Positions 5,445 to 63,108 are shown, numbered from the stretch's first letter. The stretch: DNA of 64,000 bases from an uncultured bacterium (GCA_963848965.1 CAWKFG010000004.1:800001-864000); one strand, 5' to 3'. The notes: generated by a model from the letters alone, not told the origin. Translations and numbers: made by a program.

Positions 5445-7505
5445 ATGGATCAAAAAATGAAATGGTACTTTTATTACCTTCTAAGTATAGCTGCTTTTAC
5501 GGGCAGTCTCTTGTCTATGGAACCTGCAGAGAAAGAAGAAGCTGCACCACCTAAAGAATTAGTTCCTATTGCTCGTCCTGGATATCTTCAGTGTATAGGA
5601 AGTTATTTACAGGGAACTTTAACATCAGCCTATAGTGGAAGTCAGTATCTTGTAGGGAGCACCTGGTCAGGGCTTGGGTATCTAACAAATTTAAGTATGG
5701 CTGGTGGCCGGTATGTACTTAACTTAGGATACTGTGCTCTTGAGCACTATTTAGCCTCTATACAATTGAGAAAACTTATCGCACGTCCTGATAAGTACTC
5801 TTCTGTTTTATCACATGTAAGGACCTGTACAAGTCTTAATAATGAAGAACAAGAGTTTCTTAACAATCGTATGGCAAAAGTAAAAAACGCTCTTGAAAGA
5901 ATGCTTGATAAGCAAGTTGATTCAAAATATATACCAAAAATAGCTCTCTGTTTCAGTGGAGGGGGTTATCGAGCTATGCTTGAAACGCTTGGTTGGTTAA
6001 CAGGAGCTGAAAGAATGGGTCTCCTCGATAGTTCTGTCTACATGACGGGACTTTCTGGATCAACATGGGCTCTCAATCCTTGGGTAGCCTCTCGGCTCTC
6101 ATTAGCTGCCTATAAAGAGCAACTGTTACCTAAGCTTACTAAAACACTTATGGAGCATGTAAAAAGTATGAGTACTCAAGATGCTCTTGAAATTCTTGTA
6201 GCACTTAGCAAAAAATATGTAGATCTTCAATCTATTGGACCTGCAGACTTTTTTGGTGCATTACTTGCTCATATGCTTCTTTCAAACATAGTACGACATA
6301 AACAGACATTTTCTCTTGCTGATCTTGCACCTTTAGTAAAATTAGGAAATTATCCTCTCGTAATTTCTACAGCTTCTTTAGGCGGAACATTTAACTTAAA
6401 ATACAGACCTACTTTTGAATTTTCTCCTTTTGAGATAGGAAGTGCTGAATGTGCTAAAGGTATATTTATTCCTTCATGGTCTTTAGGAAGAGTTTTCAAT
6501 AAGGGCACTTCGCAAAATATTGTTCCTATCGATATATTTAAATATGAAAAAGAAGCACTTTCAACCGCAGCAGGGCTCCTTACAACAAAAGTGCTTGGTG
6601 AGCAAGAAGCAAAAGAAGAAGTAGAAGAAAAAGCACAAATAGTTCACTACTTTGGAAGGCAGCAGTCTCTTGGGTACCTTATGGGCATCTGGGGCTCTGC
6701 TTTTGCTCTTAACATCGCAGATGTTCTTTTTGAATTAGCTAAAAAATTCTTTCCTGAAGATGTATGCCCTGTAGAAGGAGAATCAGCAGGCGGTCAATTC
6801 AAGCTTTTAAAAAGTATCTTTGCTTCACTGCTTGCCAAAACCATAGAATCATTAAGAGTTGGCTCATTTGAGCTCAAGAATATAGCGCCGGTAGCAGGAG
6901 ACATAAAGCGTTATATTGAAAACGAAAATTACGGTGCTGCACTTATTCCTAATATTACTCATAATATGGCTAACCAACCATTACGAGAAAGTCCTTATCT
7001 TTCACTCGTTGATGGAGGATTTGATGAAATAGAGGGCGATAGGCTCAACATAGCTATAACACCATTGTTAAGAAAAGATCGTGATCTTGATGTTATCATT
7101 ATTGGCGATAGTTCTGCAGAACTTATAGGAGCTCCTTCATTACGAGCTGCAGAAAGGCGTGCAAAAGCGCTTGGAGTCAAATTTCCAAAAATTACGTACG
7201 AAAACATTGATAAAAAGCCTATAAGTATCTTTATGGATGAAGGTGATCCTTCTGTGCCTATTATTGTATATATGCCAGGTATAGCAAACCCTGCTTATGG
7301 AGATTTCAATCCAATTACTGCTCTTTACACATATACGTTGAATTTCACTTATACTCAAGAGCAGGCTCAAACACTTATGGGATTAACCGAATTTAATATT
7401 ACGCAAGCTGCTCCTCTTATTCGAGAAGTTGTCTTAAAGGCAATAGAGAGAAAACAAGCAAAAGAGAAAAAAGGCGGTTGGTTTAGTTGGCTCAGAGGAA
7501 AATAA
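5445..7505 (+). CDS. Secreted cPLA2/phospholipase B-like lysophospholipase
   Basis: Signal peptide; SGGGYRAM oxyanion motif, GLSGSTW nucleophile, FEFSPFEIG, LVDGG catalytic Asp. Start may be the second ATG (5457). Confidence 0.85.
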   Translation: MDQKMKWYFYYLLSIAAFTGSLLSMEPAEKEEAAPPKELVPIARPGYLQCIGSYLQGTLTSAYSGSQYLVGSTWSGLGYLTNLSMAGGRYVLNLGYCALEHYLASIQLRKLIARPDKYSSVLSHVRTCTSLNNEEQEFLNNRMAKVKNALERMLDKQVDSKYIPKIALCFSGGGYRAMLETLGWLTGAERMGLLDSSVYMTGLSGSTWALNPWVASRLSLAAYKEQLLPKLTKTLMEHVKSMSTQDALEILVALSKKYVDLQSIGPADFFGALLAHMLLSNIVRHKQTFSLADLAPLVKLGNYPLVISTASLGGTFNLKYRPTFEFSPFEIGSAECAKGIFIPSWSLGRVFNKGTSQNIVPIDIFKYEKEALSTAAGLLTTKVLGEQEAKEEVEEKAQIVHYFGRQQSLGYLMGIWGSAFALNIADVLFELAKKFFPEDVCPVEGESAGGQFKLLKSIFASLLAKTIESLRVGSFELKNIAPVAGDIKRYIENENYGAALIPNITHNMANQPLRESPYLSLVDGGFDEIEGDRLNIAITPLLRKDRDLDVIIIGDSSAELIGAPSLRAAERRAKALGVKFPKITYENIDKKPISIFMDEGDPSVPIIVYMPGIANPAYGDFNPITALYTYTLNFTYTQEQAQTLMGLTEFNITQAAPLIREVVLKAIERKQAKEKKGGWFSWLRGK

Positions 7506-7540
7506 CTCCAAGCTCTAGTAAACTTTTTTGTAAAATATAG

Positions 7541-7573
7541 GTTAAAGGTGCTCATATCGTGAGCACCTTTAAC
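7541..7573. terminator. Bidirectional hairpin terminator
   Basis: GTTAAAGGTGCTC-loop-GAGCACCTTTAAC between convergent genes. Confidence 0.8.
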
Positions 7574-8221: not shown

Positions 8222-8222
8222 A

Positions 8223-9812: not shown

Positions 9813-11360
9813 ATGACAAAAATCTTAATATATATAGGTTTAATAAATACTTCATTTTCCTTTTCTTTAGCTATGGAAAAAGAACAAAAATCTCTCTATT
9901 CAAAGTTTACTCTATTTTCAACAAAAAAGACGGATAATGCTCAAGATGATAGTGCTCGTACACCCTTAATGAATGCCGCAAAAGAGGGCAATAAGGAAAA
10001 AGTAGAAACATTATTAACCTACGAAGCACATGTTAACTCTCAAGATACTAAAGGTCGTACCGCCTTAATGCTTGCTGCAATTGATGGACATAAAGAAATA
10101 GTAGAAACACTGATAGCTCATAGGGCAGACGTTAACATACAAGATAACAAAGGTGGCACTGCCTTATATTGGGCTGCAGTTGATGGTCAAAAAGAAGTAG
10201 TAAAACTACTCTTAAATAGTGGCGCTGATAGTAATATCCCAGATAGCAATGGAGCAACTGCTTTAATGTATACTGCAGGGCAACATTATAAAGAAATAAT
10301 AGAAATGCTTATTATCCATGGCACTTCTGTTAGTGCTCAAAATAGCTATAACAATACTGCCCTGCATTGGGCTGCAACCCATAATCAACCAGAGGTAGCA
10401 GAGTTGCTTATAACTTACGGTGCCCATGTTAATGCTCAAAATGAGGGGGGCGGAACACCATTAATGGCTGCTGCCGTAAATGGAAATGTGGAAGTACTTG
10501 CTGTACTTTTAGATAATGGTGCTAATCCGAATGATGGAGCGACTGATGATTATCACATATTGGCTTTGGCTGCAAAAGAAGGTCATTTCAACGTAGTAAC
10601 TGCACTTTTAGAAAGAGGTGCTTCTATTAATACCCAAAGTATTTATAGGAAAACTGCCTTAATATACGCTGCAGAATATGGACACAAGGAAATAGTAGCT
10701 CTTCTTATACAAAAAGGCGCTAATATTACTACTAAAGACGTTCGTGGATTCGATGCCTTGACAGCCGCAAAAGAAGGCGATACTCGTCAATTATTAGAAC
10801 TTTGCACATTACAAGAAGTAAAAACTTACCTTATTAATCCACTAGAGTATATTAAAAGAGATAGCAATAGATTTACCACAATTGGTAAAGGACAAACATG
10901 GCTCATGGTTGCATGTATCTATGGTCACGCTGATGTTATAGCTTTTTACAAGGACTACTCTCCTGACTATATTAATATAAAAGATCAGTATGGGCTCACT
11001 GCTCTTGACTATGCTTGTAAGTATAATATTGATAGCGCCGCTATTTTGATTAATACTTTGGGTAAAAAAATTAACCAATTAAATCTACAGCAAACGTTCT
11101 TCACCACTCTTACCTCTTATATCCCCTATTTTAATACCAATAAAAAGAATGAGCTTCTTAATCTTGCTGTAGAAAGGGGATATTTGCCACTCGTTAACGC
11201 TCTTTTAAGTATAGGAGCACAACCTACTATAGAGCTTGCTCAAAAAGCTCAAGAAAAAGGTTATTTAAAAATAATGCTTAGACTTCTCTTTTTAACCCTT
11301 GCTTCTACCCCTAAATATAAAAGAGAACCCTATAATTCGCTCAGTGGTCTTTTTAAGTAA
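9813..11360 (+). CDS. Secreted ankyrin-repeat protein, constant-C-terminus family, member 1
   Basis: Signal peptide ending AME; repeated G-TAL-AA-GH motifs; family tail SLSGLFK. Confidence 0.92.
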   Translation: MTKILIYIGLINTSFSFSLAMEKEQKSLYSKFTLFSTKKTDNAQDDSARTPLMNAAKEGNKEKVETLLTYEAHVNSQDTKGRTALMLAAIDGHKEIVETLIAHRADVNIQDNKGGTALYWAAVDGQKEVVKLLLNSGADSNIPDSNGATALMYTAGQHYKEIIEMLIIHGTSVSAQNSYNNTALHWAATHNQPEVAELLITYGAHVNAQNEGGGTPLMAAAVNGNVEVLAVLLDNGANPNDGATDDYHILALAAKEGHFNVVTALLERGASINTQSIYRKTALIYAAEYGHKEIVALLIQKGANITTKDVRGFDALTAAKEGDTRQLLELCTLQEVKTYLINPLEYIKRDSNRFTTIGKGQTWLMVACIYGHADVIAFYKDYSPDYINIKDQYGLTALDYACKYNIDSAAILINTLGKKINQLNLQQTFFTTLTSYIPYFNTNKKNELLNLAVERGYLPLVNALLSIGAQPTIELAQKAQEKGYLKIMLRLLFLTLASTPKYKREPYNSLSGLFK

Positions 11361-11688: not shown

Positions 11689-12549
11689 TTATTTGATTAT
11701 CGGACACCTAACTTCAGAATATTTCCGTCGTGATTTTTCAAACAATCTACGAGCATACTCGTCAAATTTATCATAATCCGTACCGTCTCTTAAAGCTCTT
11801 GTTGCAGTATTAATAAGGTTAAGCATCTCGTTTTGCTCAAGTAATCCAGTCTCTTTAGTGATATATTCTGCAGCACTCCAACCAGCTATTAAATCAGCCT
11901 GAGCCTTATCTACAGATAAATTAAAATCTCTACCACTTTTTGTTGGTTTAGCAGGAACTCCCAAAATATATTCCGGCTTTATAGGTTCTTTCTTTGGTTC
12001 CTTTGATAAAAAGGCTTCTCTTGCACGTACAAATATATCTCCAAGTAACTTGCAGCTATCAAGAGGTATAACAGCACCAATATTACTACTACCGATATTA
12101 CTGATGTCAATCGCCTTAAAATCAACACTGTAAGGTATAAAGCTAGATCCAGATAATGTCATTTCTACACCAAAAGCGTTCCGCCCCTTCTCTTTCATAG
12201 TATTTTTTATCCTTTCAGCATAGTCTTCTGTCTTTAAGAATCCTAAACTCCATACTTCAGGATCTGTATATTGCCATCCTACACCATGAGGACTTAATTT
12301 AAGTGAAGTAATTGCTTCTAGACCGTTAATCCAAATAACTTCTTCTGGATATATAACTCGACGGAGATTCGCGCCTCTAAATTGTTCCTTAAGATATTGA
12401 TACGTTACAACCACTGCGTCTGGCCTTTTATTTCTTATGAAAAGTCTTGCTTCATCACGAGGTTCTGGTTGCATACCATATACAGTAAAAGCTATACCTA
12501 CGCAGAACATATTTATTATAAATAGAAACTTTTTCATATTTTCTCCCAA
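11689..12549 (-). CDS. Secreted protein, J-like family, member 1
   Basis: Signal peptide (likely start MKKFLF); RLFIRN, RVIYPEE, LSPHG and PEYILGVP motifs shared with paralogs. Confidence 0.8.
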   Translation of the reverse strand: MGENMKKFLFIINMFCVGIAFTVYGMQPEPRDEARLFIRNKRPDAVVVTYQYLKEQFRGANLRRVIYPEEVIWINGLEAITSLKLSPHGVGWQYTDPEVWSLGFLKTEDYAERIKNTMKEKGRNAFGVEMTLSGSSFIPYSVDFKAIDISNIGSSNIGAVIPLDSCKLLGDIFVRAREAFLSKEPKKEPIKPEYILGVPAKPTKSGRDFNLSVDKAQADLIAGWSAAEYITKETGLLEQNEMLNLINTATRALRDGTDYDKFDEYARRLFEKSRRKYSEVRCPIIK

Positions 12550-12920: not shown

Positions 12921-14579
12921 ATGATCATGATAAAAAATTTAATATACATAAGCTTAATAAGCACATTATTTTCTTTTTCTCAAGCAATGGAAAAAGCCAG
13001 AACAAACCTAAAGTTCCAAACAGATCAAGCTCCACACTTAAAAAAAGAGATCACCAGTAACACCAAAAATAATGATAATCGCACACCCCTCATGAAGGCT
13101 GCAAAGAACGGCCTTAAAGAAACTGTTAACGCATTGCTAGTACAATGCAATAACGTTAATGCTAAAGACCTTAAAGATCGTACTGCCCTCATGTTTGCTG
13201 CAAAGTTAGGTCACACAGAGATAGTAAAATTGCTACTTGATAATAGTGCGGATATTAATACTCAAGACCGATATGGCCAGACCGCTCTACATCGAGCCGC
13301 ATCTCATAATAAAAAAGAAGTTGTAGAATTACTTTTAAGTAAAGGTGCTGATTACAATATTCAAGATCTCTTTGATGGTATGACTGCTTTAATATGCGCT
13401 ACAAGATATGGGCACAAAGAAATTGTAGAATTTTTTTTAGATAATGGTGCTAATATCAATGCTCAAAATAGGAATGGTAACACTCCTTTGCATTGGGCTG
13501 CAGGATATGGTTGTAAAGAAGTAGTAGAACTGCTTTTAACTAAAGGTGCTGATTACGGTATTCAAAACAATGACAATATGACTGCGTTGATGGATGCTGC
13601 AGCGCAAGGCTATAAAGAAATAGTAGAAATACTTATAACTCATGGTGCTGATATCAATGTTCAAGATAAGCACGGTAACACTGCTTTACATTGGGCTGCA
13701 GCCAAAAACCGAGTAGAAGCAATAAAACTGCTTTTAAGTAAAGGAGCAGATATCAATACTCGAACTCATGATAATAGAACTCCTTTAATACGTGCTGCGT
13801 TCTCAGGTAAAGAGAAAGCAGTTGCTACGCTCTTAGATGCAGGTGCAGATATTCATGCTCAAAATAATCGCGCCTTAACGAACGCAGCAAACCGCGGATA
13901 TAAGAAGATAGTAGTTCTTCTTATAAAAAAAGGAGCTGACCTTACTAGTATAAAGCATGACCTAACATTCGCTGAGAAAGGAGAAACTCAACAACTCTTA
14001 GAGCTTTGCATTTTACCAGAAGTAAAAGCCTATCTGAGTAACCCAATGGAATATGTTAAAAAAGATACTAATAGATTCTCTACCATTGGCAAAGGACAAA
14101 CGTGGCTTATGGTTGCATGTATCTTTGGTCATACTGATGTTATATCCTTCTACAAAGATTATACCCCACAGTATGCTAATATAAAAGATAATTATGGTCG
14201 TACAGCTTTTGATTATGCTTATACCTATAATCTCAATAGTGTTGCTACTCTTATTAACATTTTTGGTACAAAAATTAGCCAATTAGATCCTCAACAGACT
14301 TCACGCTTTACTACTCTTATCGCTTATATTCCCTATCTTGGAGCTAAAATTAAGACTTATAAAAAAGAAGAACTCCTTAAGTTAGCAGTAGATAGAGGAA
14401 ACTTGTTTCTTGTTAATGCTCTTTTAAGTATAGGAGCACAACCTACTATAGAACTTGCTCAAGCGGCAAAAGACAGCGGTTACTTAAAAGTAATGCATAG
14501 ACTGCTTTTTTTAACCCTTGCTTCCATTCCTGAATATAAAAGAGAGCCATATAATTCGCTCAGTGGTCTCTTCAAGTAA
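12921..14579 (+). CDS. Secreted ankyrin-repeat protein, constant-C-terminus family, member 2
   Basis: Ankyrin repeats; TWLMVACIFGH, LLSIGAQPTIEL, SLSGLFK. Confidence 0.92.
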   Translation: MIMIKNLIYISLISTLFSFSQAMEKARTNLKFQTDQAPHLKKEITSNTKNNDNRTPLMKAAKNGLKETVNALLVQCNNVNAKDLKDRTALMFAAKLGHTEIVKLLLDNSADINTQDRYGQTALHRAASHNKKEVVELLLSKGADYNIQDLFDGMTALICATRYGHKEIVEFFLDNGANINAQNRNGNTPLHWAAGYGCKEVVELLLTKGADYGIQNNDNMTALMDAAAQGYKEIVEILITHGADINVQDKHGNTALHWAAAKNRVEAIKLLLSKGADINTRTHDNRTPLIRAAFSGKEKAVATLLDAGADIHAQNNRALTNAANRGYKKIVVLLIKKGADLTSIKHDLTFAEKGETQQLLELCILPEVKAYLSNPMEYVKKDTNRFSTIGKGQTWLMVACIFGHTDVISFYKDYTPQYANIKDNYGRTAFDYAYTYNLNSVATLINIFGTKISQLDPQQTSRFTTLIAYIPYLGAKIKTYKKEELLKLAVDRGNLFLVNALLSIGAQPTIELAQAAKDSGYLKVMHRLLFLTLASIPEYKREPYNSLSGLFK

Positions 14580-14904: not shown

Positions 14905-15849
14905 ATGATTTGGCTTTCTAAAAAGTTTTTGTTTATTTATTTTATAGCTTATCCATACTCCAGTATGCTTACTGCTAATCCCTGTAGAATAACTACAATC
15001 ACTAAAGAGAACGGTCAAATCATTTATCTGCTATCTGATTGGAAAGAAGAATCTACTGAAACTCATCAAATGAGATTTCCCGAGCTCATAGAGCGTCTAA
15101 AAGCACTTGAAGATTCTGCCCAACAAGGTCTTCATATTTTTATAGCAAGTCCATCCACATGCTTTTTGAGTAGGCAATTAGCTGTTTTAGCAAAGCTAAT
15201 TGAATCTGCCCAAAAGCTTAATTTGAAAAAATCTACTATTGAAAACATCAATGCAAAAAGCTGCATACCTACTTTTAACTTAATTGCTTCTTGCTATCCA
15301 CATATAGAATCTCTTAATTTAGCATCTGCTGAAGTTAACACTTGTGCACAAGAACTATTTGGATATAGCTTTGATAAGCTAAGCTTTCAAACTATAATAG
15401 AAGAATTGGAGCATAATATAGATACTTTTGAAAGCTATAAAAAAAACTGTGATAATCCTTTTATTAAAGAAATACTAAAAACTAACTTACCTATATGTAG
15501 AGAGTTTATCAGTTCATCAAAATGGATCCTTGAAGAAGAAATAATGATTAATTTAAAAAAAAAACTTATAGAAGCACTTCCAGCCTTTAATGATGAATCT
15601 CATCAGTGTCGATTTAGGCTCACATTTACATTACTATCAGAAATAAGCTCTACTCTTTCTAGTCTTTACATAATCTCTCGAATTAATACTTTTTCAAATT
15701 ATGCAAAAGTTATTATTACTGCTGAAAATGATCGCATTGATAAAATTACTGCATTACTTGTCACTACTTTCTCTACTCTTAAAACACAAAGTATAGTAAT
15801 ACCAAGAGAGCTATTTAATGACACATTTTTACGCTTATTATCTTCCTAG
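14905..15849 (+). CDS. Secreted protein, DxH/GxxH family (degenerate member)
   Basis: Paralog of 15907..16890 (NGQIIY..SD, GLHIFI, TIENI) but lacks the conserved His residues. Confidence 0.7.
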   Translation: MIWLSKKFLFIYFIAYPYSSMLTANPCRITTITKENGQIIYLLSDWKEESTETHQMRFPELIERLKALEDSAQQGLHIFIASPSTCFLSRQLAVLAKLIESAQKLNLKKSTIENINAKSCIPTFNLIASCYPHIESLNLASAEVNTCAQELFGYSFDKLSFQTIIEELEHNIDTFESYKKNCDNPFIKEILKTNLPICREFISSSKWILEEEIMINLKKKLIEALPAFNDESHQCRFRLTFTLLSEISSTLSSLYIISRINTFSNYAKVIITAENDRIDKITALLVTTFSTLKTQSIVIPRELFNDTFLRLLSS

Positions 15850-16979: not shown

Positions 16980-17873
16980 TTAAATACGACAAGATTTATC
17001 CAAAGCTTCTTTTGATTCAGCAAATAAGTTACGCGCAATTGTCACGAATTTTGCCAATTCTTCTTGTACTGTGGCACCTGTAGATCTTAAAGTCCTATAA
17101 GCAGCACGAATAAGTTCTCCTAATTTCTTTTTACTAATTAATCCTGCCCCTTCACCATATTTTGCCGCTTCCCAACCAGAGCTTAAATCTTCAACAGCCA
17201 GGTCTACTGATATCTTATAATCTGGATTCATTGTACTTGGCTTAGGTGGAACTCCCAAAATATATTCTGGTCTGATGTCTTTTTTATCGTCAAAAACTTC
17301 CCCTGCACGAGTAAATATATCTCCAAGCCACTTACACCTTATAAGGGAGATAACGCGCGCAATATCAATAGTGTCCTTTTCATGAGTATCAACTTTATAA
17401 CTCAGATAAGCATATCCAGATATTGTAATCTCTACTCCTCCTACGCGAGAAATCTTGCTTTGTATTTCTGTAGCATAATCTTTTCCTGGTATCATACCTA
17501 AAGTTAATAATTTAGGATCTGCCAATTGCTTTACATCACCATGAGGACTCAGTTTAAGTGAAGTAATCATAGAAGGGCCACCAATCCAAATAACTTCTTG
17601 TGGGTAAACAACCCGTTGTAAAACAAGATCTTTAAGTTCTGGGACATTACCATACTGATAGGCTACACGTATAGCATCCGTCCTATTATTCTTTATAAAG
17701 AGTCTACCAGGTCGCTCTATGCGTCTAGGGGGTTCGTCTCCCCTTCTCGGTTCAACTACTCTTTCTTCAGCTATTGGCTCAGCTGCCCTTTTTTCTTCAG
17801 CAGGTGCCATACAATACAAGTTTTGACCTATACCCACAAGAAATAAACTTATAATAAATAGAAATTTCTTCAC
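16980..17873 (-). CDS. Secreted protein, J-like family, member 2
   Basis: GTG start after AGGAGA; family motifs present. Confidence 0.8.
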   Translation of the reverse strand: MKKFLFIISLFLVGIGQNLYCMAPAEEKRAAEPIAEERVVEPRRGDEPPRRIERPGRLFIKNNRTDAIRVAYQYGNVPELKDLVLQRVVYPQEVIWIGGPSMITSLKLSPHGDVKQLADPKLLTLGMIPGKDYATEIQSKISRVGGVEITISGYAYLSYKVDTHEKDTIDIARVISLIRCKWLGDIFTRAGEVFDDKKDIRPEYILGVPPKPSTMNPDYKISVDLAVEDLSSGWEAAKYGEGAGLISKKKLGELIRAAYRTLRSTGATVQEELAKFVTIARNLFAESKEALDKSCRI

Positions 17874-17961: not shown

Positions 17962-18810
17962 TTATATACGTTTAGGAGGAGCAGCAGGAGCTTTAACTGG
18001 AATCTCACAAGCGGCTTTTGTAAATGATTCTTGTGATTCTTCGAATAATGTACGAGCACGTTTTTTAAAGTCAGCTATTCGTTGACCACCAAGTCTTAAA
18101 GCTGAATAAGCAAGCCCAATAAGTTCACCTAACTTCTTTTTATCAAGCAAGCCTGCGCCAGATTTGTAATTAGCATCAGCCCAAGCAGCTTGCAAATTGC
18201 TATGTGCTTCATCTACAGATGTTTCGTAGTCTTTTATTGCCTTTGTGCCACTCGTTGGTTTTGATGGAACTCCAAGGATATATTCTGGCTTTATATCTTG
18301 AGCCTTTTCAAACGCTATCTTTGCGCGTGTAAATATATCTCCAAGCCACTTACATCTTATAAGAGGAATCATAGATACGATATTATTAGAAGATGGATTT
18401 ACAGTAACATTATAGCGCATAGCTATAAACCCAGATATAGTCATTTCCACTCCCCCTTGACCAGAAATACTTCCTTTTACCTCTAGAGCATAATCTTTTC
18501 CTGGTATCATACCAAAAGTTAGTGTTTCTGGACTTGTATATTGCATTACTTCGCCATGAGCGCTTAATTTAAGTGTAGCAATTTGTTCAGGATTACCAAT
18601 CCAAATAACTTCTTCTGGATATACAACACGTTGCAGAGCAACTCCTCTAAAACCTTCACGATCATATCCATATGTCACGAGCACAGCATCTGATCTGTTA
18701 TTTCTGATAAAAAGCCTACTGCCTTCTCTAGGCTCAGCTGGTTCCATACTATACATAGTAAAGGCCGCACCAACAAAGAATAAACTTACGATAAATATGA
18801 ATTTATTCAT
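17962..18810 (-). CDS. Secreted protein, J-like family, member 3
   Basis: Signal peptide ending SME; family motifs present. Confidence 0.8.
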   Translation of the reverse strand: MNKFIFIVSLFFVGAAFTMYSMEPAEPREGSRLFIRNNRSDAVLVTYGYDREGFRGVALQRVVYPEEVIWIGNPEQIATLKLSAHGEVMQYTSPETLTFGMIPGKDYALEVKGSISGQGGVEMTISGFIAMRYNVTVNPSSNNIVSMIPLIRCKWLGDIFTRAKIAFEKAQDIKPEYILGVPSKPTSGTKAIKDYETSVDEAHSNLQAAWADANYKSGAGLLDKKKLGELIGLAYSALRLGGQRIADFKKRARTLFEESQESFTKAACEIPVKAPAAPPKRI

Positions 18811-19093: not shown

Positions 19094-20491
19094 ATGATAA
19101 AAATTGCACTCTTTATAGGCCTCATAAATATCATAAGTTGTCCTTTCTTCCACGCAATGCAAAAAGAGGTTATCACCTCTAAGTCTACAACAAACAACAC
19201 TAGCAATCTCACAAAAAAAGAAATCGCCCTTCTAAAAGAAACCTCTAACATTACAATTAAAAACAATCTTCTCCTAAAAACTGCAGGCAAGGGAGACACA
19301 GAAGCTGTAGAATTAATTCTGAACTGTGGGGCAGATATTAATGCTCAAGGAAGCAATCATGAAACAGCTTTAATAATTGCTTCACACTTTGGATACATAA
19401 CACTTGTAGAGTTACTCCTAAACAAAGGAGCAGATGTTACTAAACAAGATGCTCTATTAGGTAATACAGCTTTATTAGATGCAGCAGAACGTGGCTACAA
19501 TAAAATAGTAAACTTATTGTTAAATGCAGGTGCTGATATAGATGCTAAAAACACTGCTCTTGAAAATACAGCGTTAATAAACGCAGCATGGAAAGGGCAT
19601 ACACAAGTAGTAAAGACACTTTTAGACAAGAAAGCCACTATCGATGCTAAAAATAAAAACGGCGATACCGCCTTTATGTGGGCAGCGTTAAATAACTATA
19701 CAGATATAATGTCTCTACTTTTAGAAAGAGGAGCAAACATTAATGCCAAAAACGAGTTTGGTCAAACTGCTCTCATGTGGGCAGCAGATCATAACAATTC
19801 AGAATTAATAACATTCCTTTTAAAAAACGGAGCAGATATTGATGCCAAAAATAACGAAGGTAAAACTGCCTTAGACCATGCTATTAATAGTAAAGAAGCT
19901 CGACGATTATTAGAAATTTGTGCATTACCTGAAATAAGAGAATATCTTAAAGATACAATCGCTTATAGTAAAAAGAGCAGAGGCCCCATTATCGGCAGAG
20001 GTAAACAATGGATTACGCCAACATGGCTTATGATCGCTTGCATTTTCGGTCATATTGAATTTATATGTTCATTTAAGCATGACTCTCTCGAGTATATTAA
20101 TGCAAAAGATTCTTATGGATGTACAGCCTTTGATTATGCTCTGCAATGCAACCCAAATAGTGTCGCTACCTTGATCAATATGTTTGGTACAAAAATTAAT
20201 CAATTAAGTTCACAACCAACTTCATTCGTTACCACTCTTATCTCTTACATTCCCTATCTTCGAACAAATAAAAAAGAAGAATTTCTTAATCTCGCTATAG
20301 AAAGAGGACATTTACCACTTGTTAATGCTCTTTTAAGCATAGGAGCACAACCTACTATAGAGCTTGCTCAAAAAGCTCGTGAAAATGGTTATCTAAAAAT
20401 AATGAATAGGCTTGTTTTTTCAGCTCTTGCTTCTTTACCCCAAAATAAAAAATGCCCTTACATTACTTCTTTGAGCCACTTGTTTAAATAG
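19094..20491 (+). CDS. Secreted ankyrin-repeat protein, constant-C-terminus family, member 3
   Basis: Ankyrin repeats; TWLMIACIFGH, LLSIGAQPTIEL. Confidence 0.92.
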   Translation: MIKIALFIGLINIISCPFFHAMQKEVITSKSTTNNTSNLTKKEIALLKETSNITIKNNLLLKTAGKGDTEAVELILNCGADINAQGSNHETALIIASHFGYITLVELLLNKGADVTKQDALLGNTALLDAAERGYNKIVNLLLNAGADIDAKNTALENTALINAAWKGHTQVVKTLLDKKATIDAKNKNGDTAFMWAALNNYTDIMSLLLERGANINAKNEFGQTALMWAADHNNSELITFLLKNGADIDAKNNEGKTALDHAINSKEARRLLEICALPEIREYLKDTIAYSKKSRGPIIGRGKQWITPTWLMIACIFGHIEFICSFKHDSLEYINAKDSYGCTAFDYALQCNPNSVATLINMFGTKINQLSSQPTSFVTTLISYIPYLRTNKKEEFLNLAIERGHLPLVNALLSIGAQPTIELAQKARENGYLKIMNRLVFSALASLPQNKKCPYITSLSHLFK

Positions 20492-23913: not shown

Positions 23914-23916
23914 TTT

Positions 23917-44724: not shown

Positions 44725-45072
44725 ATGAAATACTTTCTATACATTAGATTACTATTATTTAGTTTTTATAGCACTGTTCAGTGTATTATTGAGTCAATTG
44801 ATACACTTAAAAGCAGAAACGTCGGTCCCTATGTTTATCTTTATACTGATAGACATAGAGACGATCTTCCAGAATTAGATGAGCAAGAGCTTCATGCGCT
44901 TAAACATTTTTTAGAAATACACGCTTGCAGAGGAGAAATAATTCACGTCTGCATCGAAGTTACCATTCCGCTTACAAAAGCAAATACAGCTTTGCTCACA
45001 CGAGATATTTTAAAAGAAGAGTATTTTAGGACACCTTTATTATGTGGTAATGGCTTTAAGTGGTTGAAGTAA
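44725..45072 (+). pseudogene. Truncated member of the DxH/GxxH family
   Basis: Signal peptide, VYLYTDRH, IHVCIE; runs into the convergent gene and lacks the C-terminal GxxH part. Confidence 0.55.
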
Positions 45073-49861: not shown

Positions 49862-50716
49862 TTATTTTGGGGGGTTATATCCAGCACCCCGACCAGTAAG
49901 AGATTGTATCATCCCATTAAACTCAATTTCTGCCTTAAGCAAGGCATATGCTCCCTTTATTAGATTTATAGCTTCATCTATAAATTTTTGTAGCTTTGGA
50001 TATTTCTCTTCTTCTGCTTCCCATTGTTTTAATAATCTTTCATAAGCTCCAGTTATATCAGCAAGATCTGCATTTTCAGGGACAGCTAAAACATAACGAG
50101 GTAGTATTTCTATCCCTTTTCTTATAGCTTCAGCAACGCGAGGGAATGCATCGCTTACCTTATAGCTTGCTGGTACCAATGTCTTTTCACCTCCTCTTTC
50201 AAGCTCTAATCGAATAGATGTAGGTTTAGTCTCAAAGGACCTTAAGTTTTGAAAAGGTTTATCAGGAAGTGAGATTGTCAAATCTGCGCTTTTAATTGGG
50301 CTAGCTTTTAATGCTGGACCTACCTCCTGCATAAGATTCTTTGGCGTTATAATCGGAGCAGCACTGAATAAACCTTGCCACCTGCCATAGAGCTTTATAG
50401 TAAGAGTTTGTATCTCTTCTGGATTATCAAGTATCAAGCGTGGTTGAATATTACCAGAAGCAGCTGCCAATACATTTTGGCCTTTTATATTACCCTTTTT
50501 CTCATACTCTACAAGAATATCCCATGTTGTAGTATTAATAAGTGTAAGTCTTCCTTTTATTTCTTGTTCTGCCTTTTGTTGCACCGGTACTCTTTGTGGT
50601 GCTCTAGGGTCTCCATAGAACATTTCTCTTTCCAAGGGACCTTCTTTTTCCATAGCTTTGGTTAAAGAGATTATGGTGAAAATTGGTATAAATACTAAAA
50701 TAAAACACTTCTTCAT
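49862..50716 (-). CDS. Secreted protein with C-terminal HPD-less J-like domain
   Basis: PRYVLAVPENADLADITGAYERLLKQW...AINLIKGAYALL. Confidence 0.7.
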   Translation of the reverse strand: MKKCFILVFIPIFTIISLTKAMEKEGPLEREMFYGDPRAPQRVPVQQKAEQEIKGRLTLINTTTWDILVEYEKKGNIKGQNVLAAASGNIQPRLILDNPEEIQTLTIKLYGRWQGLFSAAPIITPKNLMQEVGPALKASPIKSADLTISLPDKPFQNLRSFETKPTSIRLELERGGEKTLVPASYKVSDAFPRVAEAIRKGIEILPRYVLAVPENADLADITGAYERLLKQWEAEEEKYPKLQKFIDEAINLIKGAYALLKAEIEFNGMIQSLTGRGAGYNPPK

Positions 50717-53984: not shown

Positions 53985-55484
53985 TCACTTAAAGAGACCG
54001 CTAAGAGCAAGATAGGGTTGTCTTTTGTACTCAGGGATAGAAGTAAGAGCAATAAAAAGGATCCTATGCATTATTTTTAAGTGTCCTCTTTCACCGGCTT
54101 CTTTGGCAAGCTCTAGAGTAGGTTGTGCTCCTATACTCAAAAGAGCATTAACAAAAGGAAGCATTCCTCTTTCTACCGCACATTTAAGAAGTGCATCTTT
54201 TTTACTTATACCGATATAAGGAATATAAGAAATAAGAGTAGTAAAGAGTGAAACTTTTTGAGGATTTAATTGATTAATCTTTTCACCAAAGGTATTTACA
54301 AGGCGAATAACACTATCAAAACTATATGTATCTGCATAATCAAAAGCAGTGCGGCCATAATAATCCTTTGCGTTAATGAATTCCAAAGAGTAACTCTTAT
54401 AAAACGATATAACCTCAATGTGCCCAAAGATGCAAGCAATCATAAGCCACGTTTGTCCTGTGTTAGTAGTAGCAAATCTATTGGTATCCTTTTTGACATA
54501 CTCTAATGGATTACTAAGATAAGCTTGTACTTCAGGTAAATTGCAAAGTTCTAATAGTTGACAAGTTTCTCTCTCTTTAGCGAGTGTCAACGCACTCTTA
54601 CCACTGTACTCTTGAGCTGTAATACTAGCACCATTTTTTATAAGAAGGGCTACTATTTTTTTATGCCCTGCTTCTGTAGCACATATCAAGGCAGTCCAGC
54701 AGCTGTGGCGATTTTTGGCATTACTATCTGCACCTGCGTTTAAAAGCAAAGCAACTATCTGCTCTTCACCTTTTGCAGCAGCAAGAATTAAAGGAGTTGT
54801 CTCAGTATGATATCCAGCATCGATAACTGCACCTTTGTTTAAGAGCAGAGCTGCCACTTCTGTTCGACCATAGTATGCAGCCACATGTAAAGCGGTAAAA
54901 CCATGATCATCTTGAACCTCCATATCAGCACCATAAGCAATAAGCACATCTACCATATGCTTGTCTCCATGAAGCACTGCGTTTGCCAAGGCAGTCATCC
55001 CCTTATCATCTCGAGCATTGATATTAGCACCATAATTAAGAAGCAATTCTAGTAGTTCTGTTCGGCCATAAGATGCAGCCAAATGTAAGGCAGTCCAACC
55101 ATGGTTCGCTTGAACTTCAGTATTAGCACCGTTACTAAGAAGTAGTACTACTCGTTCTGTTTCATGAAGTATAACTGCCAAATGTAAGGCAGTATCGCCT
55201 CTCTTATCTTTAGCATTAATATCAGCACCTCTATTTAATAGAAGTCGTAGGATCTCTTTATGCTCTTTACTTACAGCAAAAAAAAGAGCAGGGTCCCCAT
55301 ATTTATTTTGAGCACTAGCACTAACTCCTGCATTTAAAAGCAAAGCTACTAATTCTATATCTCCTTGCTCTACAGCGGCTATTAAATGCTCTTCTGCTTT
55401 TTCCCTTTCTTGTATCTCTTCCATTGCTAACAAATAAGAAAAGAATAATGTGCTTATCAAGCTTATAGTTTTTAAATTTTTCAT
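53985..55484 (-). CDS. Secreted ankyrin-repeat protein, constant-C-terminus family, member 4
   Basis: Start MKNLKTISLISTLF...AME; ankyrin repeats; family tail LSGLFK. Confidence 0.9.
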   Translation of the reverse strand: MKNLKTISLISTLFFSYLLAMEEIQEREKAEEHLIAAVEQGDIELVALLLNAGVSASAQNKYGDPALFFAVSKEHKEILRLLLNRGADINAKDKRGDTALHLAVILHETERVVLLLSNGANTEVQANHGWTALHLAASYGRTELLELLLNYGANINARDDKGMTALANAVLHGDKHMVDVLIAYGADMEVQDDHGFTALHVAAYYGRTEVAALLLNKGAVIDAGYHTETTPLILAAAKGEEQIVALLLNAGADSNAKNRHSCWTALICATEAGHKKIVALLIKNGASITAQEYSGKSALTLAKERETCQLLELCNLPEVQAYLSNPLEYVKKDTNRFATTNTGQTWLMIACIFGHIEVISFYKSYSLEFINAKDYYGRTAFDYADTYSFDSVIRLVNTFGEKINQLNPQKVSLFTTLISYIPYIGISKKDALLKCAVERGMLPFVNALLSIGAQPTLELAKEAGERGHLKIMHRILFIALTSIPEYKRQPYLALSGLFK

Positions 55485-55522
55485 TGTAAACTCCAGTAAG
55501 CGCAAAGAAACTGGGCCCTTTT
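55485..55522 (-). mobile_element. Isolated right-end relic of the IscB element
   Basis: AAAAGGGCCCAGTTTCTTTGCGCTTACTGGAGTTTACA closely matches AAAAGGCCCGGTTTCCGCGCTTACTGGAATTTTACA at 60236-60271. Confidence 0.72.
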
Positions 55523-55967: not shown

Positions 55968-57275
55968 ATGAAAAACTTCCTTTACACTATGAAGATAACG
56001 TATTCTAGCGTTAATCGAATGCTTTTTTTAATGCTCTTTCTTTTTCAAACTATTCAACTTTACCCTATAATTGTCGCATGTACAGTACTTAAATCTCCAG
56101 AAGGTAAGTTGATCTTCTTGCTTGGTGACTATCATGATGATAATTACCCAGAAGTATGCGCACAACAACGGGAAGATTTAGCACACATGCTTGAAAAAAT
56201 TGGTCAAGTAGAGCTTTATATAGAAGATGCCGCAAATCTCTATACACCTATTGATCCTTCAAAGTCCAAATTGCCTAATGAGTTTTTAGCAAATCTGACT
56301 CACTCTATGCAAGAAAAGAATAATCCTGGCGTCATCTACCACCAACTTGACGATATGCCATTATGTCGCTTACTTAACGCTCTCATTAATCAATATACAA
56401 ACTGTCCAGATTGGAAAGCATATAATCAGGATTTGGCCAAGCATGGTAAACCTGCTGGGGTAAGCATTACGTGGACAATGCAGCAGCTTGAAGAAGAATA
56501 TAATGATAAGGTAGCAGAATTAATAGTCCTCAGACAAAAAATAAGCAATGCTGCTATCAGAGAGAAACTTGAAGGTTTCCTTGCAAGGTGCTGTGGAAGT
56601 TATTCAAAATTATTAACTACCATTTATAAGAACCTCAATTTTAAGCCAGAAAGCACTTTAGCATTTATAGCTTTTAAAGGATTTTACGAGTATCTAAAAA
56701 ATATAAGTACTATAATGCGTTTGGGGAAGAAAGAATTTGATGAGATGCTTGCTTGCTATAACAACTTTGATACGTTAAGCAGCGAACAGGAAAAAGGAGA
56801 GATGTGGAATACACTTTACAGTCATATCCCGAAACTTAATGGCTATATTTATTATTATGGTGTTAATCAGCAGAAAATTCCTGAAGGGTATTGGGATATT
56901 GAAAAGTTCCTTAGTTGTGCAACATGGCCCCTAATTACGCAGTATACTGCTTTAAAGCTGCTAACGAGCAATAACCTTTATCCTGCTATAATATGCTCTG
57001 GAAATTGGCATACTCAAGGACTTGCTAAGTTTTTAGTTAATGATTGCGGTTATACAAAGATAGCGTTTGAAGGCTTTGAATGTATACCTGGTGCTACAGT
57101 ATGTTGGAAAACAACGCCACAAGGCATGATTTATAGCACAGTGAAGCTTGGTATAAATATGGATTTTGCAGGTAAAGGAGAATTTCGTAAGGATGTACCT
57201 CTTGTAGGCAGGCTTTATCCTCCACTTGATATTAAAGCTACTCTTACTCAATATCAAGGTTTACCCATGCTATAG
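55968..57275 (+). CDS. Secreted protein, DxH/GxxH family (long member)
   Basis: IFLLGDYH, LYIED, IICSGNWH. Confidence 0.68.
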   Translation: MKNFLYTMKITYSSVNRMLFLMLFLFQTIQLYPIIVACTVLKSPEGKLIFLLGDYHDDNYPEVCAQQREDLAHMLEKIGQVELYIEDAANLYTPIDPSKSKLPNEFLANLTHSMQEKNNPGVIYHQLDDMPLCRLLNALINQYTNCPDWKAYNQDLAKHGKPAGVSITWTMQQLEEEYNDKVAELIVLRQKISNAAIREKLEGFLARCCGSYSKLLTTIYKNLNFKPESTLAFIAFKGFYEYLKNISTIMRLGKKEFDEMLACYNNFDTLSSEQEKGEMWNTLYSHIPKLNGYIYYYGVNQQKIPEGYWDIEKFLSCATWPLITQYTALKLLTSNNLYPAIICSGNWHTQGLAKFLVNDCGYTKIAFEGFECIPGATVCWKTTPQGMIYSTVKLGINMDFAGKGEFRKDVPLVGRLYPPLDIKATLTQYQGLPML

Positions 57276-58510
57276 CCGTAACGTGCTTTATATAAGGCTT
57301 TTTGCTCTTCACTTATTTTCTTTTCTCTCTCCTGTATCTTTCTAGTATCATCTTTAAATTCTTGAGTTATATCAAGTTTCTCACTCATTTCAGGGTCAGC
57401 TTTAAGTACTTTCTCTAGGAATTTAGTGTAAAATTCAGTTGTTTCAAGAGGATTACGTATACTGACAAGAATACCTTTATCAGAAATATCGAGATCTAAA
57501 TCTGTATGTAAAACGTAAAGTTTTTCTATCGTTTCTTGAATCTCGTACAAGTGGGCAGCTATAGGGTCAATATAACCAGTATGCCCTATTGCTTTACCAT
57601 TTACTTGCACTCGTATATTGTATACCTTTCCTATCTGATCATAGCCATATTTGCGCACGCTTCCTTCTTTACTAAAGGGATCTCTTAATGCACCAATGGC
57701 TCCTAAACCCTGAATCCAATCTCTTGGTGACCAAAAGCTAAAAAGAACATTGAAGTTTGCTGGCGTGTACTCTGCTCTTTCTTCTCCAGCAGTTGCCGTA
57801 CGTACAGGGGGCCCTAGAAAGAACATATAATTGACAGCATTAAGCATCTTTGAATCTTTTAACACTTTAAATTCTAAGATGTGAGAGGCAGCATTGGTTA
57901 CGTTAGCTCCGTGGCTATGGGATAACTCACGTATATCATAGCCTTGGTAAGACGCTACTATAAATTGGCCAAGAGTATTACCGGCATCTCTTCTTGCTCT
58001 TACAGTGTTAAATCCGGGCCAACGAAACGAGAGCACTTCAATGATAGTCTTATTATTATCAGCTATTTGCTTTGCATATTTTAAAAGATTTTTAAATGGT
58101 TTACACTTGATATCATAATATGCAGGTGTAATAGGGCCACCACAACCGAAGAATCCTGTACCATGCATAATCATAACTAATATACGCTGTACTGTTCTAT
58201 TAATTTGAGGAGATTGATAAACGTATGCTCCTCGAATACCCATATCTTGTTCTTCGTTATAGGCAAAACCTTTATAATGATCTTCCAATAGGTTTTGAGG
58301 TATTTCATACCACCCTTGCATATCAGGCTCTTTAACGCATGTTAAGAGTTTATAAAAAGACAGCTCCTCAATAGATACTGCTAGTTTAGGTGCTACTATA
58401 TCCTGCTCTCGCAACGTCTTTTCGAACTCCTCCTCTAGAATTTCCATTGCCCCTAATTGTCTTGCAAAGGTTATTAAGATGAAACTAAGGAAATAAATCT
58501 TACTTTTCAT
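57254..58510 (-). CDS. Secreted alpha/beta hydrolase-like protein
   Basis: Signal peptide ending AME; MHGT, SFRWPG, SHSHGANV, PPVR, late GH; related to 29457..30602. Confidence 0.7.
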   Translation of the reverse strand: MKSKIYFLSFILITFARQLGAMEILEEEFEKTLREQDIVAPKLAVSIEELSFYKLLTCVKEPDMQGWYEIPQNLLEDHYKGFAYNEEQDMGIRGAYVYQSPQINRTVQRILVMIMHGTGFFGCGGPITPAYYDIKCKPFKNLLKYAKQIADNNKTIIEVLSFRWPGFNTVRARRDAGNTLGQFIVASYQGYDIRELSHSHGANVTNAASHILEFKVLKDSKMLNAVNYMFFLGPPVRTATAGEERAEYTPANFNVLFSFWSPRDWIQGLGAIGALRDPFSKEGSVRKYGYDQIGKVYNIRVQVNGKAIGHTGYIDPIAAHLYEIQETIEKLYVLHTDLDLDISDKGILVSIRNPLETTEFYTKFLEKVLKADPEMSEKLDITQEFKDDTRKIQEREKKISEEQKALYKARYGYSMGKP

Positions 58511-60465: not shown

Positions 60466-60479
60466 AGTATCCTTTATAA

Positions 60480-61117: not shown

Positions 61118-62122
61118 ATGAATAAAATACTTTTGGCCTTATATAATTTAATAATTTTAAGTAGTTTGTGTCTTTATGCAATGGAACAAAGCTCTTCGGA
61201 TCTACAAATTATAAATAACACTAACGAGAACTTCTATATACTTCTAACCTCAGCTGATGAGCATGAGCGAGACACTCAAATAGACACACTTGTAAGTAAT
61301 ATTACAGGAGATTCTAAAAAAACTTTAGGAAGAAGTTTAAAGCCTGGAGGTATTTTTAATATAACTAATTACACCTCTCAGAATTCAATCCAAGGCAACT
61401 TCCAAGATAAAGTATCAGTCAACCCCCAAGATTTAGCAATCATCAGCAACTATGCTGAAGTACAAAAAGTTCTTAACCAACCCGGAACTAAAGTTATTAC
61501 CCTACAAAAGCAGCTTAAAGCTCCTTGGTATTATGTAGGTACACCTATTACGGATTTTACTATCGATGCAAAAGCCGTTTCTACGCCACTTAAAGAACTT
61601 ATTGAACTTGAGGAAGGAAAGAAAGTTACTCAACAGCCAGAATATAAAGAGGAAGCTGAGAAAGCTTTAGCACAGCTTAAGAGAGCTAGCATAGATCCTC
61701 GCATTCAAGAAGTGGCACGCGAACCTTTTATGATCGCTATTAGACAACAAGATAAAAATGCTGTAATTAGTTTTCTTCAAGCAGGCATTGATCCCAACTT
61801 TACTGATCCATCAGGACAGACTCCTCTTATAAGCGCACTAGCATCTGAAGCTTTTGATATAGCAAAGCTTCTTATTGAAAACAATGCCGATGTTAATGTC
61901 CAAAATGAAGATAAAATGACTCCACTTATGGCTCTATTAACTACCAAAGAAACAGATCAAAGCAGAGTCAAAGAAATAGAAACACTAGTAAGACTCCTTC
62001 TTAATAAGCACGCCGATACTAACTTGAAAAATAACTTAGGCCAAACAGCACTAGATCTGGCACGCTATAATTACTCTGATAATCCTACTCTTATAACATT
62101 ACTAGAACAACATAGCAAATAG
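61118..62122 (+). CDS. Secreted protein with C-terminal ankyrin repeats
   Basis: Signal peptide ending AME; GQTPL, KMTPL, GQTAL. Confidence 0.85.
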   Translation: MNKILLALYNLIILSSLCLYAMEQSSSDLQIINNTNENFYILLTSADEHERDTQIDTLVSNITGDSKKTLGRSLKPGGIFNITNYTSQNSIQGNFQDKVSVNPQDLAIISNYAEVQKVLNQPGTKVITLQKQLKAPWYYVGTPITDFTIDAKAVSTPLKELIELEEGKKVTQQPEYKEEAEKALAQLKRASIDPRIQEVAREPFMIAIRQQDKNAVISFLQAGIDPNFTDPSGQTPLISALASEAFDIAKLLIENNADVNVQNEDKMTPLMALLTTKETDQSRVKEIETLVRLLLNKHADTNLKNNLGQTALDLARYNYSDNPTLITLLEQHSK

Positions 62123-62433
62123 CTACAAATTTTTTAGGATCACAGTAAAAGAAGATTGCTTGCTTTAGAATAACGCCCTGATCATTATTTTCTCCTTACT
62201 ACCCTTTGATTATTATGTACTGCAAACAATACGTAAACTCAATAACATCGAGTACAGCATACTCTAAATAAGAATGACCCTAACGGCAATGATAGAAATA
62301 GTAAGATCTAGTATACTCTTCATATAAATAAATTTTTTATTGACTCTATTAGGACTTCATTTTACTCTGCTAATAATCTTAATAGATCTCTTAATCTTTT
62401 CCAACAGACCTTAATGTCTAATAAGGAGTTTTC

Positions 62434-63108
62434 GTGATAAAAGTTCTATTTTTATCTTTGTTTATCCTTGTAACAACAAATATACAAGGAATGGAGCAAG
62501 CAGTTCCAAAGGTATTTAACGCTATTCAGGAAAATTTCAGAGGGTTAGCTCACAATATGCTTTCTGAAATTGATACTGGACTCTATGTTTTGGTAGATGA
62601 TGTACTCAGAGATCACCGAAAAATTCAATCTAATAATGGAAACGTATCTACAATTTCAGCAGCTCTTCGTAACCCTAATCTCTTTATAGTAAATGAGGAA
62701 CATAGCAATATAGCAGAACTTCTAAGTGAAGAAGAAATAACTGCAGTAAAAGCAAACAAATACTTCATATCAATACTCAACCAAAAACAAAAAGAAGTAC
62801 TTCTTCACCATATTCATAAATATAATCAAAACTTATTCAATGAGATAAGATCACAATTAGCATACATACATAAAGAAGATCCGGCTGTATCTCAAAAAAT
62901 AACTGACACCAAAAATGTTCAAGAACTTAAAACTGTTTTAAATACTAAAGAAGTACACAAGACTCTTAAAAATCTCATGTTAACGCTTGAGGCAGAAACT
63001 GAAACACTAAAAGTGCTCAAAGAATGTCTACAAATACTTAGAAGCTTGGTTACTCGTCTTACTTACTTTGTACAAGCGGAAGAAGCCTTTACCACAACGG
63101 CTAAATAA
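62434..63108 (+). CDS. Hypothetical secreted helical protein
   Basis: GTG start after AAGGAG; signal peptide ending GME. Confidence 0.7.
   Translation: MIKVLFLSLFILVTTNIQGMEQAVPKVFNAIQENFRGLAHNMLSEIDTGLYVLVDDVLRDHRKIQSNNGNVSTISAALRNPNLFIVNEEHSNIAELLSEEEITAVKANKYFISILNQKQKEVLLHHIHKYNQNLFNEIRSQLAYIHKEDPAVSQKITDTKNVQELKTVLNTKEVHKTLKNLMLTLEAETETLKVLKECLQILRSLVTRLTYFVQAEEAFTTTAK

Follow-up and report, generated by a model that had tools for sequence, protein, structure and literature searches.

Methionine after predicted signal-peptide cleavage sites of host-type proteins in a Dependentiae genome

Methionine junctions in the window

The stretch of DNA analysed here, called the window, comprises 64,000 nucleotides (G000:C4:800001-864000) of a 1.73-Mb genome with 37% GC that is 88.7% complete, and it encodes a series of predicted secreted proteins in which the signal peptide ends in a small residue and is directly followed by Met, usually with Glu or Gln behind it. 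With its SecY being 57-82% identical to records of Candidatus Dependentiae, Babeliales or TM6, and the best match in any other phylum reaching about 43%, the organism belongs, as this protein places it, to the phylum Dependentiae (TM6), order Babeliales. Dependentiae are widespread parasites of protists, mostly uncultured. Two genome papers report signal peptides in up to 44% of genes and a type II system as the sole secretion system detected (PMC6561590, PMC4378268).

A reading of the window from its sequence alone had listed 17 open reading frames (ORFs) with such a junction and described their products as unrelated. When the N-termini of all window ORFs of at least 80 aa were inspected by eye, all 17 junctions were present (Table 1), 16 of them at the N-terminus of the ORF and the seventeenth behind an internal ATG (22288) of an ORF that begins with GTG (22126-22830). 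The common layout is a Lys-rich start, a hydrophobic stretch, a small residue and Met, usually with Glu or Gln after it. Two of the 17 are weak cases, namely 22288-22830, where Met-Gly is followed by a hydrophobic run, and 44221-44571, which has charged residues in the c-region.

Cleavage sites were predicted with a home-made heuristic, not SignalP, which combines a hydrophobic core with the -3/-1 rule and is blind to the residue at +1. Of the 32 signal peptides it predicts in the window, 13 are listed with a Met junction, although the printed tally is 12, for which the binomial P is 1.5e-13 (12/32 against 1.77% Met). Twelve of the 13 lie on ORFs of the sequence-only reading, and the thirteenth (14905-15849) is atypical in having Leu after the +1 Met. 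Five ORFs of that reading were missed: those at 19094, 32846 and 45040 were not called as having a signal peptide, and those at 44221 and 57254 were given a different site, in the former case two residues further on than SKA↓MA (the arrow marks the cut). The start at 22288 lies outside the predictor's ORF set, and in 17962-18810 the predictor cuts at the first of two neighbouring Mets. As the predictor overlooks several obvious cases, its Met counts are underestimates.

The Met-bearing proteins of the window comprise a PLA2_B protein, seven ankyrin (Ank) proteins and several orphans, whereas the signal peptides without Met belong to Amidase_3, SBP_bac_3, three Peripla_BP_6, PALP and GNAT proteins. 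The earlier claim that the motif is absent from the amidase, NlpC/P60 and binding-protein fusions thus stands for the Amidase_3, SBP_bac_3 and three Peripla_BP_6 proteins, but the NlpC/P60 label itself falls below threshold (E 0.01 and 16.2 bits against a cut-off of 23 for 8316-9464; no match for 40766-41971).

Table 1. Window ORFs with a methionine junction (positions counted from the first nucleotide of the window; SP, signal peptide)
Feature	Position	Strand	SP	Met codon	Junction	Remark
PLA2_B-type lysophospholipase precursor	5445..7505	+	5445-5516	5517-5519	..LLS↓ME..	
Ankyrin-repeat protein	9813..11360	+	9813-9872	9873-9875	..SLA↓ME..	
282-297 aa family member	11689..12549	-	12475-12549	12472-12474	..VYG↓MQ..	
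Ankyrin-repeat protein	12921..14579	+	12921-12986	12987-12989	..SQA↓ME..	
Extra candidate	14905..15849	+	14905-14964	14965-14967	..YSS↓ML..	off the earlier list; no Pfam match
282-297 aa family member	16980..17873	-	17811-17873	17808-17810	..LYC↓MA..	
282-297 aa family member	17962..18810	-		18754-18756, 18745-18747	FT↓MYS↓ME	two candidate sites
Ankyrin-repeat protein	19094..20491	+	19094-19156	19157-19159	..FHA↓MQ..	missed by predictor
Protein from internal ATG start	22288..22830	+	22288-22353	22354-22356	..IFS↓MG..	weak case; no Pfam match
Ankyrin + zf-MYND protein	30832..32760	-	32695-32760	32692-32694	..LSC↓ME..	
Ankyrin + zf-MYND protein	32846..34528	-	34475-34528	34472-34474	..MYG↓ME..	
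Small protein	44221..44571	-	44497-44571	44494-44496	..SKA↓MA..	weak case; E, K in c-region
Protein without known family	45040..46257	-	46192-46257	46189-46191	..IRS↓ME..	
284-aa protein without known family	49862..50716	-	50654-50716	50651-50653	..TKA↓ME..	
Ankyrin-repeat protein	53985..55505	-	55425-55505	55422-55424	..LLA↓ME..	
No family match above threshold	57254..58510	-	58448-58510	58445-58447	..LGA↓ME..	
Ankyrin-repeat protein	61118..62122	+	61118-61180	61181-61183	..LYA↓ME..	
No family match above threshold	62434..63108	+	62434-62490	62491-62493	..IQG↓ME..	
282-aa family paralogue	63176..64000	-			..LYC↓ME..	runs off window end; start just outside, C4:864114

Four of the ORFs in Table 1 (11689-12549, 16980-17873, 17962-18810 and 63176-64000) form, together with C4:864276-865154 and C5:17526-18416, a family of six proteins of 282-312 aa without a Pfam match, one copy of which carries an in-frame TAA. 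The search with this family did not retrieve the similarly sized product of 49862-50716. The family is lineage-specific, the 201 phylum genomes searched containing it only in this genome apart from one weak match, and as a result it is silent on gain or loss of the Met. The ArgG protein of the window (1375-2592, + strand) has nearest relatives that span many unrelated phyla including archaea, at 56-67% identity, and SecY is firmly of Dependentiae type; horizontal transfer is a possible origin of the arginine genes.

The methionine class across the genome

Out of 1520 crude ORFs in the genome, 596 have a candidate signal peptide without further transmembrane segments, and Met stands at +1 in 186 of these (31%), compared to a proteome background of 1.77%; the corresponding P of 1.5e-170 is to be taken as an order of magnitude only, because paralogues are not independent. 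The spike is confined to this one position, with 0-21 Met residues at each of the 20 other positions from -10 to +11. Given a Met at +1, the next residue is E in 106, Q in 27, K in 22, D in 9 and N in 6 proteins, E, Q and K together making up 155 of 186. The baseline given by the outgroups is 1 of 77 predicted signal peptides with Met at +1 (0/32, 0/23 and 1/22). The pattern is neither the Q-rule of Bacteroidetes, with Gln at +1 in 31 of the 596 against 186 with Met, nor the lipobox of lipoproteins, given that +1 is Met and that Cys, where it occurs (4% of the Met class), is restricted to -1. For what follows we use a refined Met class of 223 proteins, which allows for sites misplaced by a few residues.

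In this refined class, position -1 is A in 39%, G in 28% and S in 25% (92% together), -2 is Y in 26% and F in 18% (44% together), and -3 is L in 36%, S in 12%, V and I in 11% each, and T and A in 10% each. With a small residue at -1, an aliphatic or small one at -3 and signal-peptide lengths peaking at 18-21, the junction fits signal peptidase I as the sequence-only reading had supposed, but the -3/-1 fit is built into the predictor, so only the sharp Met at +1 counts as independent evidence. Behind the Met, +2 is E in 53%, Q in 13%, K in 11%, and D and N in 4% each, the 53% Glu at +2 comparing with 8-22% at +3 to +10; +3 is K in 19%, P in 17%, Q in 12% and R in 10%. The most frequent tripeptides after the cut are MEK (36), MEP (24), MEQ (16) and MKR (14), with Lys at +2 often occurring as Met-Lys-Arg. 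The non-Met class has the classical A, V or L at -3 and no strong preference at -2.

We note a Met-Lys-Arg sub-motif directly after the cut in 14 of the 223, including three tandem proteins of 1690-1773 aa at G000:C4:683214-698945; the stretches behind it are either acidic and rich in Ser and Glu or else rich in Lys and Arg, the latter being similar to nuclear localisation signals.

Apart from the cleavage box, the signal peptides of the Met class are ordinary Sec-like ones, with a median length of 21 (mode 18-21), an n-region charge of +1 and a core length of 16. Length (median 21 vs 22), n-region charge, core length and hydrophobicity are alike in the Met and non-Met classes, and a different targeting route for the Met class is not supported. 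The genome has one match to Peptidase_S26 (E 6.7e-36), and each of the 41 phylum genomes searched, this one included, has 1-3; a second, dedicated signal peptidase is thus not supported either, with a single S26 gene in a genome of this completeness. These observations bear on the possibility that the box serves signal peptidase I only, in which case a bulky Met and an acidic +2 would fix the cleavage register and speed the release of long, charged, disordered ends. Met, Glu, Gln and Lys cannot fill the -1 or -3 pockets, the LepB gene is single, and since the signal peptides are otherwise alike, the cleavage box alone differs. However, many periplasmic proteins have charged N-termini without the Met, and neither the restriction to eukaryote-type proteins nor the choice of Met over other bulky residues is explained in this way, and we consider it improbable as the whole account.

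The Met class is spread over many protein families. Clustering the 596 proteins by BLAST, with their signal peptides removed, gave 341 clusters, and the refined Met class spans 92 of these, 66 being singletons, which bears out the description of the proteins as unrelated. The largest cluster consists of ankyrin proteins, of which 100 of 122 are in the Met class; inspection by eye shows the junction in 7 of the remaining 22, leaving about 15 of 122 without it. Across the genome, the junction occurs in 58 of the 64 ankyrin-like ORFs for which a signal peptide is predicted.

We compared the domains of the two classes in an independent sample, 387 kb of contig C1 outside the window. Of 46 Met-class proteins there, 37 have a Pfam match, and all 37 matches are to eukaryote-type domains: Ank in 21 (two with zf-MYND), zf-C2H2 in 10, WD40 in 2, LRR in 2, RING in 1 and Mito_carr in 1. 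In contrast, the 74 candidates without Met include 17 with extracytoplasmic-type domains (three Trypsin_2/PDZ, S41, M23, SBP_bac_3, GH3, C11, Metallophos and others), along with 13 obvious cytoplasmic false positives (such as L11, L17 and PNPase), 3 WD40, 6 Ank (visual inspection shows the junction in at least 3 of these) and 35 without a match. The split between effector-like and envelope proteins that the sequence-only reading had proposed is therefore borne out on C1 as well as in the window.

Two groups of proteins on C1 deserve mention in their own right. A tandem array of at least eight signal-peptide C2H2 zinc-finger proteins with 4-11 fingers each and the junction ..Y[ST]↓MQE.. lies within C1:232149-251642 (approximately C1:233097-241884); these are apparently exported DNA-binding proteins of eukaryote type. 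At G000:C1:328704-329585 (- strand), a Mito_carr (mitochondrial carrier) repeat (E 3.5e-25) stands behind a predicted Met-type signal peptide, and this protein may be meant for a host membrane.

Start codon, fossil start or selected residue

The residue is always Met, encoded by ATG, which raises the possibility of an alternative internal start, i.e., of a long exported form and a short cytoplasmic form that begins at the Met, as the sequence-only reading had suggested. We searched for a Shine-Dalgarno-like 4-mer 4-18 nt upstream of starts and found one at 620 of the 1520 annotated starts, at 104 of 223 Met-class starts and at only 3 of the 223 internal ATGs, compared to 28 of 373 equivalent positions in non-Met proteins. 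In addition, it is not obvious what host-type repeat proteins would do in the cytoplasm of the bacterium. An internal start is thus highly implausible, and that suggestion is not upheld.

A related explanation is that the Met is a historical residue, i.e., the old start of once-cytoplasmic or wholly acquired ORFs that gained a signal peptide by extension at the 5' end. T-rich upstream DNA readily encodes hydrophobic peptides, and the eukaryote-type domains of many Met-class proteins could have come as whole ORFs. However, the residue after the Met does not behave like position 2 of real N-termini, being E in 53% where real N-termini have E in 6% and K in 19-30%. The homologues of the PLA2_B-type protein, which occur in 158 of the 201 phylum genomes searched (this one counted), also speak against it. 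A signal peptide is predicted for 26 of 29 loci taken from other genomes, yet a +1 Met is credible only in the close relative G137 (..VVA↓MQ..); a match with Met in G087 looks like a mis-called start, and the other mature ends are mostly Asp, Glu or Thr. For the phospholipase family this explanation is largely refuted. More broadly, homologues were found in the sampled DNA of relatives for 19 of 104 non-repeat Met-class proteins, and among the 44 homologue pairs, some of which may be paralogues, a signal peptide is followed by a residue other than Met in 29 and by Met in 9, with no signal peptide predicted in the remaining 6. Homologues that have a signal peptide but another +1 residue indicate that the signal peptide predates the Met; by these comparisons, the Met is a gain on pre-existing signal peptides.

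The Met is also conserved within the genome. In three paralogue families, its column ranks 1 of 57, 1 of 47 and 4 of 58 in conservation, with identities of 1.00, 1.00 and 0.54 where the remaining columns have medians of 0.18, 0.20 and 0.04, which is hard to reconcile with a mere leftover and makes a fossil start very unlikely overall. A DNA- or RNA-level motif around the ATG was rejected, with synonymous codon use at -3, -1 and +2 equal to that of the genome (GAA/GAG 0.66/0.34 vs 0.67/0.33), and because codon use is at the genome norm, the constraint acts on the protein. Judged from these sequences, the +1 Met is neither a start codon nor the fossil of one but a residue selected at the protein level and kept while its flanks drift.

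Distribution, possible function and related systems

The same pipeline was applied to samples of 20-200 kb from relatives, with the strict +1 Met counted against all predicted signal peptides; gene content varies between these small samples. Within the same family (f1), the counts are 13/46 in G137, 14/46 in G141, 13/34 in G079 and 16/48 in G147, but also 4/34 in G173, 3/34 in G048, 3/54 in G163 and 3/32 in G024. The closest relative by SecY (84%), G204, follows the rule with 11/45. In other families, we obtained 14/82 in G001, 7/35 in G039, 7/53 in G005, 6/65 in G040, 2/27 in G019, 1/15 in G007, 0/40 in G008, 0/18 in G010, 0/5 in G017 and 0/9 in G013. The +1 Met rule is therefore widespread in the phylum but graded and patchy (0-38%), and a spread of this kind fits a benefit that accrues protein by protein, such as a cap, better than an obligatory signal. 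The ankyrin proteins of G040 have the common junction ..MSMYAA↓QE.. and occasionally ..YA↓MQE.., which suggests that the cleavage box has lineage-specific variants.

We tentatively propose, as a possibility that falls somewhat short of probable, a lineage-restricted, effector-type Sec signal peptide in which the Met caps the mature N-terminus for the host cytosol. The single signal peptidase I (LepB) would cut just before the Met, a site we infer from sequence, and the mature protein would start with Met-Glu or Met-Gln. The Met would then shield the residues behind it, which might otherwise destabilise an exposed N-terminus in a eukaryotic cytosol, and the retained Met-X end would resist Met-aminopeptidase and resemble a native N-terminus. 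Being too bulky to enter the -1 pocket of the peptidase, a Met at +1 would fix the cleavage register as well. E, Q, D, N, K, R, H and bulky hydrophobic residues are destabilising N-termini in the eukaryotic Arg/N-degron pathway, and a Met before such a residue is not cleaved by Met-aminopeptidase. The residue behind the Met is of this destabilising type in 205 of the 223 proteins and small in 18.

Several points weigh against a cap. Ala, Ser, Gly and Thr are stabilising as well, so a cap alone does not explain the choice of Met. A cap also predicts that effector-like proteins without Met should begin with stabilising residues, which was not confirmed: their +1 residue is of the destabilising type in 19 and of the stabilising type in 11 of 30 cases, against 232 and 111 of 343 for the other proteins. 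Relatives rich in signal-peptide ankyrin proteins do without the rule, as with the ..MYAA↓QE.. junction of G040. The cleavage sites are predictions of a heuristic that recovered the Q-rule weakly in a Bacteroidales positive control of 32 predicted signal peptides, where Q was the top +1 residue with 5/32. At 88.7% completeness of the genome, a second peptidase could have gone unnoticed. We infer delivery to the host cytosol from the domains of the Met-class proteins together with the Babela and Chromulinavorax papers. Finally, the sequence-only reading had pointed out that such ends are substrates of the acetyltransferase NatB; the +2 residues are indeed of NatB type (E, Q, D or N) in about 74%, but NatB is described as acting co-translationally and tethered to the ribosome (PMC11735805). 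Since these proteins are made in the bacterium, acetylation of the imported proteins is doubtful.

A modifying enzyme for the +1 Met was not found in the genome. Both Met-aminopeptidase genes (Peptidase_M24) lack a signal peptide, and an exported enzyme acting on the N-terminal Met was rejected on this ground. The sole exported GNAT protein (window 49042-49737, + strand) is of RimJ/RimL type (Acetyltransf_3, E 8e-34), and its N-terminus resembles a signal peptide (..LAIMA↓E..); once exported, such an enzyme would depend on the host for acetyl-CoA. Matches to it are weak, occur in 12 of 41 family genomes (this one included) and all start no earlier than query residue 41, so that the N-terminal part is not covered. 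None of the 40 other genomes of the family has a close homologue: G137, G079 and G147, in which the rule is strong, gave no match, and the match in G141 has 25% identity. As it does not co-occur with the rule across these 41 genomes, the GNAT protein was rejected as an N-acetyltransferase that the parasite would supply itself.

About 25 kb upstream of the window, the genome encodes three secretins; two of them have a predicted signal peptide, without Met, and none is predicted for the third. An alternative to the cap is that the Met-Glu end, or the L-Y-[AGS]↓M-E box in its entirety, acts as a linear tag for sorting that would be read by a second, type II/secretin export step and would separate exported proteins from periplasmic residents after Sec export and cleavage. 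Besides the secretin genes, several points favour a tag: the box is the sole feature common to more than 200 proteins in 92 unrelated clusters, it cleanly splits host-type proteins from periplasmic enzymes, and the Babela paper reports type II/secretin machinery as the only secretion system detected. Rules at +1/+2 are also known elsewhere, in the diatom ASAFAP motif (PMC4329603) and in the N-terminus exposed by PEXEL cleavage in Plasmodium (PMC10038149). Nevertheless, the rule is graded among close relatives (3/54 to 16/48 in one family), and the ankyrin-cluster members without the box do not sit well with an obligatory signal, which would be hard to acquire protein by protein. Hydrolases of the classical type II cargo kind (Peptidase_C11, GH3, Metallophos) lack the Met, and type II secretion is not known to use a linear signal. 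An effector-sorting signal and host N-terminus mimicry, both put forward in the sequence-only reading, are each possible. On balance we regard a sorting tag as possible but doubtful, and the more specific proposal that the Met-Glu end itself targets proteins to the host, as the bacterial equivalent of PEXEL and read by the secretin machine or at a translocation step in the host membrane, as rather unlikely. If the latter held, it would be the first linear export signal of a type II-like pathway and a one-line rule that lists the whole effector set of an uncultured phylum.

We found no mention of a +1 Met rule in the literature searched, which covered the accessible text, without supplements, of the phylum genome papers PMC6561590, PMC4378268 and PMC4776705. 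The nearest known system is the Q-rule, with PEXEL and ASAFAP as functional analogues in eukaryotes. Under the Q-rule, the +1 Gln of signal peptidase I substrates in Bacteroidetes is converted to pyroglutamate (PMC5837995, PMC10653852). The likeness is in a lineage-specific preference for one +1 residue of Sec/signal peptidase I signal peptides, seen by proteome statistics, and the residue of the Q-rule has been linked to the stability of exported proteins. In contrast to Gln on most signal peptidase I substrates, the residue here is Met on about a third of signal peptides, in the host-type class only and patchily in the phylum, and the M24 pair and the GNAT protein that we examined did not provide a modifying enzyme.

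The PEXEL motif of Plasmodium is cleaved in the endoplasmic reticulum, and the exposed N-terminus is needed for export (10.1101/2023.07.12.548774, PMC10038149). Both cases involve an intracellular parasite, a short motif near the signal sequence and an exposed N-terminus with an acidic or amide second residue. PEXEL, however, belongs to a eukaryotic parasite, has a dedicated aspartic protease and is a separate motif downstream of the signal peptide, whereas here, in a bacterium, the motif is the signal-peptidase site itself and a role in export is putative. In ASAFAP, the +1 Phe is the sorting determinant. This conserved motif at the signal-peptide cleavage site of diatom plastid pre-proteins (PMC4329603) is similar in that a conserved residue just after the cut sets apart one destination class among signal-peptide proteins, and different in that it concerns eukaryotic algae, Phe rather than Met and a plastid destination. 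As for NatB, its substrates begin with Met followed by Asp, Asn, Glu or Gln, the dipeptides of about 74% of the predicted mature ends (E 53%, Q 13%, D 4%, N 4%), but it works on nascent chains (PMC11735805), and the proteins here would reach the host already finished.

In this genome, the rule of a signal peptide, a small residue, Met and then Glu, Gln or Lys splits the apparently host-directed class from the envelope class and picks out about 220 proteins, of which about 66 are orphans that have no paralogue among the signal-peptide proteins of the genome. It would be the second lineage-specific +1 rule in the otherwise universal Sec/signal peptidase I pathway after the Q-rule and, unlike the latter, a class-specific one. 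The Met-Glu tag could mark the organism's host-directed proteins, and because related genera range so widely in their use of the rule, natural comparisons are available. As such, the rule can serve in practice to predict effectors, and it gives testable access to their sorting or to their stability inside the host, which makes it of interest for secretion and effector research.

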